Below, piece after piece: positions 52,006-57,528 of a stretch of 59,409 nucleotides of DNA. Below the pieces are notes generated by a model. The model was given only the letters and a program-made list of their open reading frames with translations, searched no databases and was not told the DNA's origin. Numbering within the stretch: the first letter of the stretch is position 1; each line of letters starts with the position of its first letter. Origin of the DNA: a virus. Taxonomy: Duplodnaviria > Caudoviricetes. The position numbers and the translations under genes are program-made. The stretch is from positions 1-59,409 of IMG/VR virus record IMGVR_UViG_3300005531_000120. One strand, given 5' to 3'.

Positions 52006-52305
52006 CTATGCGGCAGCGGCCTCCAGCGCGCGAATCACGGCCTTGGGCTCGTGCGCGATCACGGTCAGGAATGCGCGCACCGCGCCATCAGGCACGCGGC
52101 GGCCCTGTTCCCAGCCTCGGACCGTCCCGATGGGAAAGCCGAAGCGCATGGCGAACTGTTGCTGGCTCATTCCCAGCTTCTGTCTGATCTCCTTCACGTT
52201 GACGGTCCGGACGCTGACCGTGGTGGCCTTTACGCCCGACCGCTCGCCCTTCGCGTGAGCGAGCGCGTCACGCAAACCGGCGATGATCTTGGCCCCGTTG
52301 GACAT
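52006..52305 (-). CDS. HigA-like XRE antitoxin
   Basis: VKEIRQKLGMSQQQFA..FG....TVRGWEQGRRVP. Confidence 0.9.
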   Translation of the reverse strand: MSNGAKIIAGLRDALAHAKGERSGVKATTVSVRTVNVKEIRQKLGMSQQQFAMRFGFPIGTVRGWEQGRRVPDGAVRAFLTVIAHEPKAVIRALEAAAA

Positions 52306-52341: not shown

Positions 52342-52713
52342 TCAGCCGGCTTGTCGGTGCCGTTTGAATGACCTAACTATCCGCTTCACCAAATCCTTCA
52401 TTTCCGCCTTCTCGTCGGCAGACAAATCCACCTTCTCGTTCTTGGCGTAGATCGCCAGCAAATAAAGCGGGATTGTCTCGTCGTGGTAGAAGTAGATCAC
52501 GCGACCGCCGCCTCTCTTGCCGCGACCGCCCAGGCCCACGCGGGTCTTTCTGACGCCGCCGGTGCCGGGGATCACGACGCCTTCCTCTGGGTTACGGGCC
52601 AGCCGGTCGATCAGGCTGGTCAGCTCGTCTTCCGTCAGCAGCCGCCGCGCATCCTTCATGAACGGCTCGGTCTCGCCGACCACTACCCCAACGACCAAAA
52701 CGTAGCGTTCCAT
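52342..52713 (-). CDS. RelE/HigB-family toxin
   Basis: NPEEGVVIPGTGGVRKTR...GKRGGGRVIYFY...YAKNEKVDLS; start uncertain. Confidence 0.92.
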   Translation of the reverse strand: MERYVLVVGVVVGETEPFMKDARRLLTEDELTSLIDRLARNPEEGVVIPGTGGVRKTRVGLGGRGKRGGGRVIYFYHDETIPLYLLAIYAKNEKVDLSADEKAEMKDLVKRIVRSFKRHRQAG

Positions 52714-53105: not shown

Positions 53106-53171
53106 CGTTCAGCGGTCGGCCGGAGGTTCTCCGGCTGGGCGTCCCGCGCGACGCGCTGCCACGCTGAACCG

Positions 53172-53336
53172 ATGCCGAAGCAAAAGACCAAACTGAGCGA
53201 CGAAGAACGCGGACGCCGCCTCCGTGCGACGGCGCGCGAGGTGGGCGCCGATGCCTCTGGGAAGGAATTTGAGCGCGTCTTCACAAAGATAGTCCGCCCG
53301 AAGGCCAGCCCGCGAATGGGCAAGAAAGGCCGCTAG
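53172..53336 (+). CDS. Small basic hypothetical protein
   Basis: RLRATAREVGADASGKEFERVFTKI pattern. Confidence 0.5.
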   Translation: MPKQKTKLSDEERGRRLRATAREVGADASGKEFERVFTKIVRPKASPRMGKKGR

Positions 53337-53428
53337 AACTCGCATATAGGCACCTTCATCTCCCCAGGCTTCCAGGCTCATCGCGGCCCTCTGGCGAGGC
53401 GCTCGATCCGCTCGATGAGGGATTTCAG

Positions 53429-54451
53429 GGGGCTTATATACTTGACTCCCCATGATGGGTTAGGCCGCCACGATCTTCCGCTCAGCGATGTAGCAGAGCA
53501 GCGAGCATTCGGCGGCCGGTCCTTCATCGCCATCGTCAAGGGTCGGGTCCAACTCATCCAGAAATATCCGCTCCCGGTCGCCGCTGGTCATCTTCACAAG
53601 CCGCACGCCCAAGGCGCGGCTGAGCCGCGCTCGCTTCTCGAAATCAACCGGGAAATGACGCCGGGTCCGGTTCCAATAGCGAGGCGATTGAGCGTTAACG
53701 CATCCTATGCAATTCGCGTTTGGAAAGCCCAGCCGATACATGATCGGCAGGAGGATGCCCGCACGGATCACAATGGCATGGCAGTCATCCTTGGTGAGAC
53801 CGGCATCAATCAGGGGCGTGACGAGCCGGACATCTGGGTTCTGATCCCGGAACCGTTCGGCCCGCGCGCGCTCATCAAAGGTAAAACCAAAAGCCTGCAA
53901 ATCCGGGTGCCACTCCCTCTCGAAAGTCCAGCAAACGGCCTTCTTCATTTCCTGTGTGCAGGAAGCCCCTTCGACGCCGCTCATATATCGGCGTCGGGTC
54001 CACACGTCCTCGCAACTCGAATACTCCGCGCTCTTCAGATTCAAGATTGGGCGCCCGAACCATCGCTCACAGTCGGCGGCAAAACGATCATTGTCCTCGT
54101 GTTCCTCGGGCACCAGACAGCGGGCAATCTCCACGTCATGCGTGTCCGAATACTCGGCGAGTACAAGCCGACTTGTGACAGCGCTGGCCGTCCCCGCAGA
54201 AAACCACGAAACAATGCGAGGCCGATCAGCCATCGCGTACGATCTCCGCCGCGCGCCGACCCTAGCGACCAAAGAGGAATTCGAGCGTCTTCCGCACCCG
54301 GCGGTGCCCGAAGGCAACACGCAAACCACGACGATATGCCTGGGCGAGCACCTCCTCGTTCGCGTCATGAGTTCGGAAATCGGCCACGATATCATTCGCC
54401 GATGGAAGAATCTTAGGGGCAGAACCATGTTCAGCCAAAGTGATTACTCCC
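53429..54451. mobile_element. 1023-bp non-autonomous cassette with 8-bp target duplication (IS1595-like ends)
   Basis: GATTTCAG at 53421..53428 and 54452..54459; imperfect terminal inverted repeats; no transposase. Confidence 0.8.
53460..54233 (-). CDS. PAPS-reductase-like (adenine nucleotide alpha hydrolase) phage protein
   Basis: WFSAGTASAV PP-loop variant, CTQEMKK, GFTFDE..R, PLID..LTK.DC, NANCIGCV, C-terminal CSLLC. Confidence 0.85.
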   Translation of the reverse strand: MADRPRIVSWFSAGTASAVTSRLVLAEYSDTHDVEIARCLVPEEHEDNDRFAADCERWFGRPILNLKSAEYSSCEDVWTRRRYMSGVEGASCTQEMKKAVCWTFEREWHPDLQAFGFTFDERARAERFRDQNPDVRLVTPLIDAGLTKDDCHAIVIRAGILLPIMYRLGFPNANCIGCVNAQSPRYWNRTRRHFPVDFEKRARLSRALGVRLVKMTSGDRERIFLDELDPTLDDGDEGPAAECSLLCYIAERKIVAA

Positions 54452-54493
54452 GATTTCAGCCGCTCGCCGGCGGCGCCGCCGTGGTCCGCCATT

Positions 54494-54787
54494 TCATGCT
54501 CCTCCGAGTGGACCCGCGCACTTGCTGCAGAGGTCGCTGTCGTTGACCCAGTGACAGCGGCCGCCGCTCCGGATATCGACGCAGGCGCGGTCCTCGGTGC
54601 AGCCGCAGAGCCGGCAGGCGATCATCGGGGTCGTCTGCACGCCCGCGACCTCGCCGAGCCCGAAGCGATGGGCGGTCGAGGCCAGCTGCTGGACCTGGAA
54701 CTCGTCCGGCTGCTCGAGCGAGACCGCCTCGAGCAAGACGCGCCGGTACCGGTCGACCACCTGGTTGCGGAAGATCTCGGGCATCAC
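54494..54787 (-). CDS. Hypothetical protein with Cys cluster
   Basis: CRLCGCTEDRAC...CHWV..DLCSKC. Confidence 0.65.
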   Translation of the reverse strand: MMPEIFRNQVVDRYRRVLLEAVSLEQPDEFQVQQLASTAHRFGLGEVAGVQTTPMIACRLCGCTEDRACVDIRSGGRCHWVNDSDLCSKCAGPLGGA

Positions 54788-54902: not shown

Positions 54903-55115
54903 TCACAGCGCGAGCTCCAGTTGCGCCTGGAACCAGATTCGCAACGGCCGCCGCTGCGGAAGCGGACGCCGGCACGCCGAGCACATCTCTCGGTGACCCC
55001 GATCGGCGGGATCCGGCAGGGGCGCGCTGCCGAGCTTCACGCCAACGAGCGACATTTCGGCGCCCGGCCGGGTCCGCCGGAGGAAGGCCGGGATCTCCCA
55101 GGGGTCGGCACTCAT
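54903..55115 (-). CDS. Hypothetical phage protein
   Basis: WEIPAFLRR motif; ATGA overlap with ATPase stop. Confidence 0.5.
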   Translation of the reverse strand: MSADPWEIPAFLRRTRPGAEMSLVGVKLGSAPLPDPADRGHREMCSACRRPLPQRRPLRIWFQAQLELAL

Positions 55116-56974
55116 GCGCGGCCTCGCATGAGCTCGGCGTCGAAGAGCTGCTCGGCCGCGCGGATCGTGCCGTCGCGCTCGGTGACGACGAGCTCGCGGG
55201 CGCCGAGGCGCTGAAGGTAGGTGTCACGGCTCGAGCGCTTGTAGCCGGTCGCCTCGGTGAGCGCCTCGCGGCTCACCGGCTCCGGATAGGCCGGCAGCAG
55301 CCGCTCGAGGATGACGCGCTCGCCCTGGGGCAGGCGCTCGAGCCAGTACCGCTGCAGCTCCTCCCCAGTGGGCAATGGCGCGAAATCGGCGCCCAGGGCC
55401 GCGATGCCGGCATCGGTCGCGAGGATCCGCTCGCCCGTCTCGACGTAGCCCGCGGCGCCGAGCCGCTGCACGTAGGTGTCCCGGCTCGAGCGCTTGTAGC
55501 CCGTGAGGACGGTCAGCTGCTCGCGCGTGACGCCCTCGGGATGCTGCGCGATCGCGACCAGGCACGCGCGCTCGCCGCGCGCCAGCGGCTCGCCGGCGCC
55601 GTTGGAAGATGGAGCGGGGTCCCGGCGTCGCACCGGGCTCATGCTGGTCGGGCCAGCCCGTCGAACCGACACCCCGCCGGGCGCCGGAGTCGTTCCGACT
55701 CCGGATTTCGTCAGCGCGTCGTTGAAGAGCTTGAGCGAGGCGAAGGCCTCGGTATTCCCGCCGAGCTTCTCGAGCTTCGGGTCCTTGAGCTCGTCAATGA
55801 AGGCGCGCAGCCCGGTCACGCTCTCCGCGAGGCGGCCGAGGTTCGCCATCAGCGGCGCGATGTGCTTCGCCGCACGGCGTAGACCATCGGTGACGCCTTC
55901 GGCGTGACCCTCTTCGCGGGCCCGCTTCAAATCGTCCTTCACCGCCTCGAGCGCGGTCTTCAGAGATGACCTGAGGTTGGCAACCTGCTCGTGTGCCTTC
56001 GCATCCGGCGTCGTGGCCGCGGCCTTCAGCTGCCGCTGCAGCTCCGCGATCGTCGCCTTGAGCCGGCGCGGGTCATTGTCGGCGGTCTCCTTCTCGACCG
56101 TCGCGAGCTTGCCGCGCAGCGCCTCGACATTGAGCGGCTTCAGGTCGGCGGCGTGCTTGCGCTCGCCGCGCTTCGGCGTCGCCGAGCTGTCGAAGGTTGT
56201 CTTCGCCGGGAAGTCCGCGTCCTTGATGATCCCGCGGCCGGGGATCCACACCAGGCCGTGGCCGCGCGGAAAGGCCGCGAGCTCGCCGTAGAGCTCCTTC
56301 CACCGCGCCTTGTCGGCCTGACCCTCGACCCAGTCGCCGATCGCGTCGCGGTCCTGGGTCGAGGTGAGCTTGAACGCGACGAGCCCGTCGATCTGGGAGA
56401 GCACGTTCTTCGAGAGCACCGCCGGCCGCTGGGTGATGAGCCAGGGGATGAAGCCGAGGCGCCGGCCGCGGCGGACGATCGTCTCCATCTGGCCCAGCAG
56501 CTTCGCGGCCTCGCCCTCCTTGTCGAGGAGCCGCTGCGGCGCCCAGAGATCCGCCTCGTCGAAGATCAGGTGCACGGGCTCGCGCGAGGCCTTGCGGTAG
56601 ATCGCGGTCAGCAGGCCCAGCATGAAGCGGCGCTCGGCCGCGTTGGTGCCGAGGCTCGAGAGCGAGACGATGCAGCTCTCCGCCATGCCGGCGACGGTCT
56701 CGCCGATGAGCGCGCCGGCGTGCTCGTTCAGCGGCAGGTCGCCGTGCTCGCCGCCGAAGATCACCACCTTGAACGGCGATTCCGTCTTGCCGTCCGCCAG
56801 CAGCCGCAGGCCAAACCACACATCCAAGGGGTCCAGAATGATGCACCGCGCCCCCCGACGGAGAAGCTGCTCAACGCAGCCGGAAGCGTTGTAGGTCTTG
56901 CCGGAGCCCGCCGTGCCAACGAACCCCAGGCGATCGTCGAGGGCGGCAGCGGGTATGGGGTGCTGCGCGCTCAT
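55112..56974 (-). CDS. HerA/FtsK-like P-loop ATPase with coiled coil and tandem C-terminal winged helices
   Basis: GTAGSGKT, ILDPLD, LIFDEAD, RRGR..G, ITQRP; two TGYKRSSRDTY(V/L)QRL repeats. Confidence 0.9.
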   Translation of the reverse strand: MSAQHPIPAAALDDRLGFVGTAGSGKTYNASGCVEQLLRRGARCIILDPLDVWFGLRLLADGKTESPFKVVIFGGEHGDLPLNEHAGALIGETVAGMAESCIVSLSSLGTNAAERRFMLGLLTAIYRKASREPVHLIFDEADLWAPQRLLDKEGEAAKLLGQMETIVRRGRRLGFIPWLITQRPAVLSKNVLSQIDGLVAFKLTSTQDRDAIGDWVEGQADKARWKELYGELAAFPRGHGLVWIPGRGIIKDADFPAKTTFDSSATPKRGERKHAADLKPLNVEALRGKLATVEKETADNDPRRLKATIAELQRQLKAAATTPDAKAHEQVANLRSSLKTALEAVKDDLKRAREEGHAEGVTDGLRRAAKHIAPLMANLGRLAESVTGLRAFIDELKDPKLEKLGGNTEAFASLKLFNDALTKSGVGTTPAPGGVSVRRAGPTSMSPVRRRDPAPSSNGAGEPLARGERACLVAIAQHPEGVTREQLTVLTGYKRSSRDTYVQRLGAAGYVETGERILATDAGIAALGADFAPLPTGEELQRYWLERLPQGERVILERLLPAYPEPVSREALTEATGYKRSSRDTYLQRLGARELVVTERDGTIRAAEQLFDAELMRGRA

Positions 56975-57528
56975 AAAGCTTCCGCGCGGACGGCGCCGTG
57001 CTTCAGCCGCCAGACAGTCGATTGGCTTACGCCGAATTCGGCCGCGACGGCTCGCTGGCTGATCCCGGGCGTGTTCGCCCGGCGCCGAAGCGCCGCTACC
57101 TGGTCGTCGGTCAGGTCGGCATTCCAGTTGTTCTCGCCGCGCGGCCCGACTTTGCGCGCCCGACCCTTGGCCTCCATATCTTCGACGTTCTCGGCTTGCG
57201 TGCCTTCGAACAGATGGCGCGGCCGGACGCAATTGGGCACGTCGCACTCATGCAGCACGTGGATGCCGTCGGGGATCGGACCGTTCGCGCAGGCATAGGC
57301 GAGCCGGTGAACGTAGACCTGTTGTTCCTTGTACTCGATCCGGCCATGTAGTCCGCTCGGTCGATAGCCCTCGAAGAGCCAGCAATCGCCAGCAGGGCGC
57401 ACGAGCGCCAGCGTCGCCATGATGCGTTCGATCGAAACAACGGCGTTGCGGTCGACGATCACCGGCGCGCTGCGACCAACCAGCCGCATCTCGGCGAGCA
57501 TCCGATGAATGAAACTCACGGCGACCAA
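56971..57528 (-). CDS. HNH endonuclease with C-terminal HTH
   Basis: CWLF...VHRLAY...VLHECDVPNCVRPRHLFEGTQAENVED. Confidence 0.9.
   Translation of the reverse strand: MVAVSFIHRMLAEMRLVGRSAPVIVDRNAVVSIERIMATLALVRPAGDCWLFEGYRPSGLHGRIEYKEQQVYVHRLAYACANGPIPDGIHVLHECDVPNCVRPRHLFEGTQAENVEDMEAKGRARKVGPRGENNWNADLTDDQVAALRRRANTPGISQRAVAAEFGVSQSTVWRLKHGAVRAEAL

Follow-up and report, generated by a model that had tools for sequence, protein, structure and literature searches.

A transposase-less cassette with IS1595-type ends and a PAPS-reductase-like gene inserted in a gapR-like gene of a phage

Insertion sequences (IS) of the IS1595 family with passenger genes were reportedly described by Siguier, Gagnevin and Chandler in 2009, and the cassette MIC231 of Bacillus cereus reportedly by De Palmenaer et al. 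in 2004. The name transporter IS (tIS) is given to IS with passenger genes in an excerpt of the TnCentral preprint (10.1101/2021.05.26.445724), and an excerpt of PMC3129680 describes mobile insertion cassettes (MIC) as IS-type inverted repeats with genes other than those of transposition inside, no transposase, and presumed mobilisation in trans by a cognate transposase. The present analysis concerns a segment of this type in the virus record IMGVR_UViG_3300005531_000120 of IMG/VR, a stretch of 59,409 bp that was analysed at its full length and is called the window hereafter. The segment (53429-54451) carried one gene for a PAPS-reductase-like protein between two terminal inverted repeats. With a probability of about 0.9, it is an IS1595-derived, transposase-less cassette that was inserted with duplication of its target; the function of the cargo and the present-day mobility of the cassette are much less certain.

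The cassette resembled the IS1595 transporter IS, exemplified here by elements of Roseomonas p1318-1, Methylobacterium pMOC1, a Mesorhizobium plasmid, the genome G123 and the viral contigs L118 and L132, in its type of repeat, its 8-bp duplication and a passenger adjoining one repeat, and differed from them by having neither a transposase gene nor a detectable remnant of one, and by the degeneracy of one repeat. It resembled MICs such as MIC231 in having IS-type repeats around a gene not devoted to transposition, and no transposase. MIC231 belongs to the IS231/IS4 family, whereas the window cassette is of the IS1595 type, lies in a phage genome and has a cargo of the DNA-modification type; mobilisation in trans is presumed for MICs. 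The ISNwi1 subgroup of ISfinder has ends of the form gg..atTAT and passenger-carrying members, and the window ends may be of this subgroup.

Phage PAPS reductases are presented in an excerpt of PMC13551039 as homologs of DndC and SspD in Aca-regulated anti-defence operons, and Piel et al. (2022) is cited in the same excerpt for the evasion of Dnd with a phage PAPS reductase. The cargo was akin to DndC/SspD, PptA (PDB 21fy) and PHROG 424 by its matches to phrog_424, PptA and SspD, and differed by the lack of a PF01507 match at E ≤ 10 and of DndA/D/E or SspA-C partner genes beside it. The target was akin to GapR/DUF2312 in an 11-residue core (identical in the Xanthobacteraceae GapR L079), and differed in having only about 27 codons left and lacking the DNA-binding domain past the motif. 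No literature joining IS1595 with a PAPS reductase was found. The literature on IS1595, methyltransferase passengers and phages, as far as its excerpts go, does not appear to describe such cassettes, and the passenger lists of the 2009 IS1595 paper and of ISfinder may already include such genes.

An IS1595-type cassette with a target duplication in a gapR-like gene

The two copies of an 8-bp direct repeat, GATTTCAG, were located at 53421-53428 (left) and 54452-54459 (right), 1023 bp apart, and the inner 19-mers of the intervening segment were 11/19 identical as inverted repeats. These coordinates and counts, which the original prediction had given, were reproduced. The left terminal inverted repeat extended over 53429-53450 on the plus strand, with a 19-nt core (53429-53447) and likeness to relatives up to position 22. 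The right repeat (54433-54451, minus strand) was degenerate, with 11/19 identity to the left end and 13/19 to the repeat L091 (hand count). No further repeat site of this type was found in the window, where the best had 14/19.

By sequence comparison, the ends of the cassette are IS1595-type terminal inverted repeats. An IUPAC pattern merged from both window ends was searched in 401 Xanthobacteraceae genomes, a set centred on a genome with a 59%-identical relative of an ATPase of the window, and gave 3 matches; the reversed control gave 0. The left end was 18/19 identical to L089 and to L090 and 17/19 to L091, and 21/22 identical to L089 and L090. The L091 repeat (genome G123) lay 47 nt outside a 319-aa open reading frame (ORF) with matches to DDE_Tnp_IS1595 (1e-37) and Zn_ribbon_IS1595 (2e-10), and the L089 repeat lay 50 nt outside an ORF with a match to Zn_ribbon_IS1595 (3.7e-11). 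The partner repeat of L089 was not found, and the contig ends there. L090 was identical to the L089 end over 27 nt; this lone IS1595-type end in genome G127 (G127:C2:2084750, also L099) came with no transposase, lacked a partner repeat within 8 kb, and is either a solo repeat or part of a much larger element.

The element of G123 was complete, with 2007 bp, repeats identical at 18/19, a duplication of 8/8, a transposase and one passenger ORF. Its transposase, used as a tblastn query against plasmids, matched 430 records, named 'IS1595 family transposase' wherever annotated. Three plasmid elements were opened (Roseomonas p1318-1, Methylobacterium pMOC1 and a Mesorhizobium plasmid) and had the repeat type of the window, with identities between their own ends of 15/19, 15/19 and 18/19, respectively, lengths of 2604-3816 bp and perfect 8-bp duplications in all three. 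The two that were annotated carried passenger genes, including a PIN/VapC gene. Two IS1595 elements of alphaproteobacterial plasmids, L095 (NZ_CP061092.1) and L096 (NZ_JX627580.1), had a common passenger set 3' of the transposase, which encodes a hypothetical protein (about 270 aa), a PIN/VapC toxin and a short protein (about 60 aa) and resembles a toxin-antitoxin module; pMOC1 had one extra passenger gene in the opposite sense.

The same repeat type was abundant in viruses. The pattern GGGNNTTATATACTTGACT was scanned against IMG/VR contigs, which gave at least 119 stretches, and elements were called from each exact match by a partner repeat and an identical 8-mer outside both ends (8/8 required). 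Among the matches listed, to which all counts of viral elements in this text refer, 48 complete elements of 297-2389 bp were obtained, and all their partner repeats had at least 16/19 identity. Because 3 matches in about 2 Gb of genomes stand against at least 119 in a much larger viral collection, an enrichment in viruses cannot be claimed. From position 5/6 to 22, the left end of the window cassette matched terminal sequence of almost every complete viral element, and the right end gave no BLAST match to the ends of other elements. In an alignment of ten repeats, positions 1, 2, 8, 9, 15 and 18 were invariant, and the right end of the window kept all six.

The IS1595-family ends proposed in the original prediction were therefore borne out by the 17-18/19 identity of the left end to repeats outside DDE_Tnp_IS1595 or Zn_ribbon_IS1595 ORFs, and the 8-bp duplication, proposed as a trait of the family, recurred in the three plasmid elements, the G123 element and the 48 viral elements. 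The prediction had also depended on related ends occurring elsewhere, and these were abundant.

The target of the insertion was a gapR-like gene. The window stretch 53395-53428 was matched in 15 of the 401 Xanthobacteraceae genomes, over that stretch only and at up to 32/34 nt, and the eight matches that were opened were all GapR/DUF2312 genes of 87-94 aa, aligned at the core motif of the family. The 3' part of the remnant (53378-53420, minus strand) reads LKSLIERIERL from the left copy of the duplication, whose minus-strand reading is L-K-S, followed by five unrelated codons and TGA, and these 11 residues were identical in L079. The natural 24-aa left piece matched NCBIfam PRK13694 weakly (E 0.12, profile positions 13-25 of 83), as it did Pfam GapR_DNA-bd (E 0.056, profile positions 5-16 of 72). 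No full GapR DNA-binding domain was found anywhere in the window. The left flank was taken as a remnant of gapR because the homology stops five codons before the TGA and no further GapR sequence occurs in the window.

The 5' part of the disrupted gene (54460-54492, minus strand) comprises an ATG (54492-54490) and ten codons, followed by the duplicated L-K-S. Its Shine-Dalgarno sequence, GGAGGAG, sits within the 3' end of the upstream 97-aa gene, with one base between the stop of that gene and the ATG. Excision in silico of the segment gave a stop-free ORF of 27 codons from the ATG at 54492 to the TGA at 53378-53380; the restored reading frame of the original prediction held in this sense, and is a modest one at 27 codons. 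Joined, the two flanks resemble the beginning of a gapR gene, and the part of the right flank in this likeness is suggestive: against a GapR profile of eight proteins, the left piece scored 12.9 bits and the joined ORF 18.5 bits. The right flank was also considered as a gapR N-terminus present in genomes, and this was rejected, as genes without relation to gapR accounted for the genome matches to 54451-54490. In L019 (1303-1521) and L048 (3303-3521), two phage contigs related to the record through the ATPase at 46% identity, a full-length gapR-like gene with 58% identity to a host GapR was observed about 4.5 kb upstream of the ATPase; gapR genes therefore occur in this phage group, at another position.

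The GC content also marked one side of the segment. The best change point was at 54459, at the right copy of the duplication, with a sharp rise and a log-likelihood gain of 5.2. The GC content at third codon positions (GC3) was about 0.91 in native genes, 0.68 in the PAPS-reductase-like gene and 0.62 in orf76, an ORF that runs from the target into the cassette.

Several results weighed against the reading of the segment as an inserted IS1595 derivative, or against parts of it. In the whole window, 9099 pairs of exact 8-mer direct repeats lay 700-2500 bp apart, and 105 of them had inner inverted ends of at least 11/19, so that the repeat and the 11/19 ends on their own are at chance level. No GC change point occurred at the left copy, and the lower GC extended leftward to about 52200, across a RelE/HTH (helix-turn-helix) gene pair; of the less GC-rich segment described originally, the right boundary was confirmed and the left one was not. 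Positions 10-13, well conserved across the lineage, differed in the right repeat. Of 200 shuffled versions of the N-terminal residues, 13 scored as high against GapR as the joined ORF, and the contribution of the right flank is for that reason only suggestive. A single copy of the cassette is known, with no second one in the phage record. The search for an empty allele that had been proposed with the prediction was run on contigs of four other metagenome runs and returned the occupied site only; the joint 53428-54460 was absent among the joints listed from the four runs (sides of 20-24 letters). Loose contig ends at 54452-54462 came from GC-rich sequence of other origin; an acyl-CoA-ligase-like gene in G176, for instance, has the stretch in common. 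Three collections yielded no close relative of the phage, with viral contigs searched by the cargo, the 97-aa protein and the ATPase, a phage collection by DNA, and GTDB genomes and metagenome contigs by the ATPase; the best ATPase relatives were at most 73% identical, and the small neighbouring genes were common to none of them. At E ≤ 1e-10, the 401 Xanthobacteraceae genomes gave no match to the cargo, and the host is guessed from the similarity of the ATPase and of gapR. The window copy may be immobile now.

If the repeat and the ends were coincidental, the PAPS-reductase-like gene would be an ordinary moron acquired by illegitimate recombination, to which the 105 comparable pairs, the extension of low GC beyond the left copy and the occurrence of cargo homologs in unrelated contexts in other phages are all agreeable. 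This explanation is very improbable and is effectively refuted by the IS1595 end matches, the plasmid and G123 elements and the viral elements. A left end identical at 21/22 to the ends of IS1595 elements, a repeat type that recurs at both ends of 48 viral elements, each with a perfect 8-bp duplication, a gapR-like gene that continues in the flanks across the insertion and a right GC change point that falls on the repeat all argue against it. The pattern of duplication and ends gains significance only through this comparison with other sequences, that is, through the IS1595-type ends and the gapR-like flanks.

Integration of a small circular DNA at an 8-bp core by a site-specific or illegitimate recombinase (Campbell-type) would likewise leave a direct repeat around the insert after a single crossover at the common core, and the phage encodes two tyrosine integrases. 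It is as improbable as coincidence: terminal repeats of the IS1595 type form the ends, and the duplicated 8-mers varied between elements in the 48 relatives, which is characteristic of duplication by staggered cuts and not of a fixed core. The target duplications of the viral elements looked A/T-rich by eye.

Sister elements in viral contigs and the cargo protein

The cassette was described originally as transposase-less, and neither a transposase nor a detectable remnant of one was found in it by profile and tblastn searches. Autonomous IS1595 elements encode a DDE transposase (PF12762) with a zinc ribbon at its N-terminus (PF12760). PF12762 had 0 matches in the whole phage record, and tblastn with four IS1595 transposases gave nothing significant in the cassette, including the 199-nt spacer (54234-54432, minus strand) that separates the right repeat from the start of the cargo gene. 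The cassette has the structure by which a MIC is defined, with IS-type repeats around a passenger and no transposase. A weak sigma-70-like pair was read by eye at the right end (TTGGCT at 54438-54433, 17 nt, and TAAGAT at 54415-54410), and a promoter scan of the spacer gave 0 sites above the threshold of the scanner.

The fusion ORF orf76 (54262-54492, minus strand) consists of 14 target codons and 62 codons into the cassette. It was rejected as a genuine conserved gene, as it matched itself only among 5.8 billion clusters and matched no family; BLASTP against two IS1595 transposases gave E values of about 1 only.

Distinct viral elements numbered 43, of which 19 had a transposase of at least 200 aa, 5 a partial one and 19 none. 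Seven of the transposase-less elements were 297-504 bp long, the size of miniature inverted-repeat transposable elements (MITE), and 12 were 716-1298 bp long. The elements had 136 ORFs with a length of 60 aa or more; passengers were annotated by comparison of 60 of these with Pfam and of 22 ORFs with PHROGs. The 12 cargo-sized transposase-less elements carried an N6_N4 methylase (5), a D12 methylase (2), a Dam-type methylase (1), a C5 methylase (1), a homolog of the window cargo (1, L205) or no recognised family (2). Transposase-bearing elements with DNA methyltransferase passengers were also found (L155, L214 and L160/L193).

Cargo of the PAPS-reductase-like type occurred in three viral elements among the matches listed. 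L118 and L132 carried it together with a transposase (phrog_424 at 8e-46 and 2e-50, respectively); the L132 passenger was also matched by Pfam PAPS_reduct and aligned with the window family at a probability of 88% (hhalign). The third, L205, was transposase-less and 859 bp long, with a cargo 44% identical to that of the window over 243 aa (phrog_424, 6e-30). The gap between the end of the cargo gene and the repeat was about 11 nt in L118 and 12 nt in the window. The passenger-carrying and non-autonomous relatives anticipated in the original prediction thus exist, with PAPS-reductase-like cargo both beside a transposase (L118, L132) and alone (L205). The PptA-like gene of L205 (3673-4531) contained a single in-frame TGA at a Cys that is invariant in 11 homologs (C175 in the cargo of the window). 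It may be an error or a nonsense mutation, and such a codon in place of a conserved Cys is typical of selenocysteine as well.

Two transposase-less cassettes of 1069 bp with a D12 methylase, L202 and L211, were 91% identical over their full length and had different duplications, and this unit was therefore inserted at least twice without carrying a transposase. MITE-like derivatives with both repeats and perfect 8-bp duplications, too short to hold a gene of any size, were L213, L152, L105, L163, L169, L119 and L180; the first 66 nt of L105 were 94% identical to one end of the transposase-bearing L132. A cargo homolog lay 2.9 kb from a lone repeat in L110.

The cargo gene of the window (53460-54233, minus strand) encodes a PAPS-reductase-like (PptA-like) protein of 257 aa. 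It matched phrog_424, 'PAPS reductase', at 8e-43, and chain C of PDB 21fy, named PptA by its depositors, at 1e-48 over nearly its full length (2e-88 with a profile). The SspD profile of PADLOC matched at 9.7e-6, and no Pfam family matched at E ≤ 10. Its nearest Atlas clusters were dominated by viruses and had PF01507 in 10-52% of their members, and a structural neighbour cluster with PF01507 had a template-modelling (TM) score of 0.90. The closest viral homolog, L002 (63%), lay 3' of an overlapping HTH gene. An 85-aa protein on a 2055-bp contig (P0004) was a fragment about 95% identical to the cargo that differed in sequence on both sides of a 70-residue core; it could be either a second copy in decay or a chimera of the assembly.

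The canonical nucleotide-binding motif of the PP-loop is of the SGGxDS type. This form was absent from the cargo family, in which 11 homologs had S-x-G-x-x-S instead (S12, G14 and S17, near the N-terminus), together with an E-H-x-D-N motif and six invariant Cys. These motifs may correspond to a PP-loop-like nucleotide site and to a metal or Fe-S site. No paper on the function of PptA was found in the literature. The family of the cargo and the methyltransferases of the sister cassettes make an anti-restriction modification gene a plausible role for it.

Proposed insertion history and exchange of passengers

The window cassette is most probably a transposase-less derivative of an IS1595-family transporter IS, with one passenger of the PAPS-reductase-like (PptA/SspD/DndC-like) PP-loop type. 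It interrupts a gapR-like gene of the early/ATPase operon at codons 12-14, with duplication of the 8 bp. The insertion would have been catalysed by an IS1595-family transposase, either supplied in trans by the host or by a co-resident element, or encoded by a transposase-plus-cargo ancestor like L118 or L132 that lost it later. It would have created the orphan fusion orf76 and oriented the cargo in the same sense as the phage operon, which makes read-through expression possible; transcription could come from read-through, from the weak TTGGCT-17-TAAGAT promoter in the right end, or from both. The remainder of gapR would have been lost after the insertion. The cargo may act on DNA or on a host defence that depends on DNA modification, a proposal made because sister elements carry DNA methyltransferases in the same position.

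In a variant of this history, a complete transporter IS with a transposase and a PAPS-reductase-like passenger would have jumped in and then lost its transposase by deletion on site, so that the cassette would never have moved without a transposase and would no longer be mobile. L118 and L132 combine a transposase with the same class of cargo, and their cargo adjoins one repeat in the same geometry as in the window. The repeat on the upstream side of the cargo, at the expected place of the transposase, is the degenerate one and is followed by 199 nt of unassignable sequence, and only one copy is known. However, no transposase remnant was detectable in these 199 nt, and the transposase-less cassettes of the lineage do occur as units at different sites (L202/L211). 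This sequence of events is possible, with odds clearly short of even; both histories leave an identical structure and differ in the order of events only, and confidence in it overlaps with that in the structural claim made above.

For the IS1595-derived cassette of the window, mobilisation in trans is suggested indirectly by L202 and L211, and this backing is weakened by the degenerate right repeat, which also makes the mobility of the window copy doubtful.

A wider proposal is tentative, at somewhat under even odds: one IS1595 lineage with GGGNNTTATATACTTGACT repeats and an 8-bp duplication, with or without its transposase, would shuttle DNA-modification genes among phages and prophages, with an interchangeable slot for Dam-type, D12, N6/N4 or C5 methyltransferases or for PAPS-reductase-like (PptA/SspD-like) enzymes. 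Given the shared passenger slot, the PAPS-reductase-like cargo would under this proposal be a DNA-modifying or modification-mimicking counter-defence enzyme. Counter-defence genes of phages cluster in variable regions, and their movement is mostly ascribed to recombination; if such a shuttle operates, transposition would move them between phages as well. At the present locus, a defined transposition system with recognisable ends and duplications has delivered a DNA-modification-type gene into a phage operon, and its sister elements do so with orphan DNA methyltransferases. Should this be general, new anti-restriction cargo could be found cheaply through the sequence of the terminal repeat, the spread of anti-restriction genes would have a testable route, and the poorly understood PAPS-reductase-like proteins of phages would be tied to DNA modification by shared carriage.

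Phage record and neighbouring genes

The window is the whole of the virus record, with an estimated completeness of about 90%. A contig of 161 kb that carries this prophage is also on record. The phage is probably temperate, as the record contains two tyrosine-integrase genes, and as a prophage it would therefore meet host transposases; the source is probably a temperate soil phage.

The genes around the cassette were on the minus strand. The native gene upstream of the insertion (54494-54787), which encodes a Cys-rich protein of 97 aa and has a GC3 of 0.91, marks a native operon that reads into the cassette. Farther upstream were the gene of the 620-aa HerA/FtsK-like ATPase (55112-56974), with matches to HerA profiles and to phrog_2666, 'terminase large subunit' (6e-17), and an HNH endonuclease gene (56971-57528). 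The ATPase resembled a HerA/FtsK-type translocase more than its PHROG label would indicate, and had two winged-helix (MarR-like) repeats at its C-terminus. Its relatives at 45-64% identity were in Xanthobacteraceae, Pseudolabrys and other metagenome-assembled genomes.

On the other side of the cassette, a called ORF of 90 aa (53109-53381, minus strand) had its ATG overlapping the stop of the gapR remnant (ATGA) and matched no family. A lysine-rich ORF of 53 aa (53175-53336, plus strand), also without a family, was favoured over it by the GC content per codon position. The gene pair of a RelE-like toxin and an HTH protein (52342-52713 and 52006-52305, minus strand) lay in a stretch of lower GC3. 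The toxin matched Pfam RelE (3.4e-9) and phrog_5869, and its HTH partner was antitoxin-like (HTH_3, MqsA-like). A near-identical variant of the RelE protein, with two substitutions, was recorded on a separate contig of 2840 bp.

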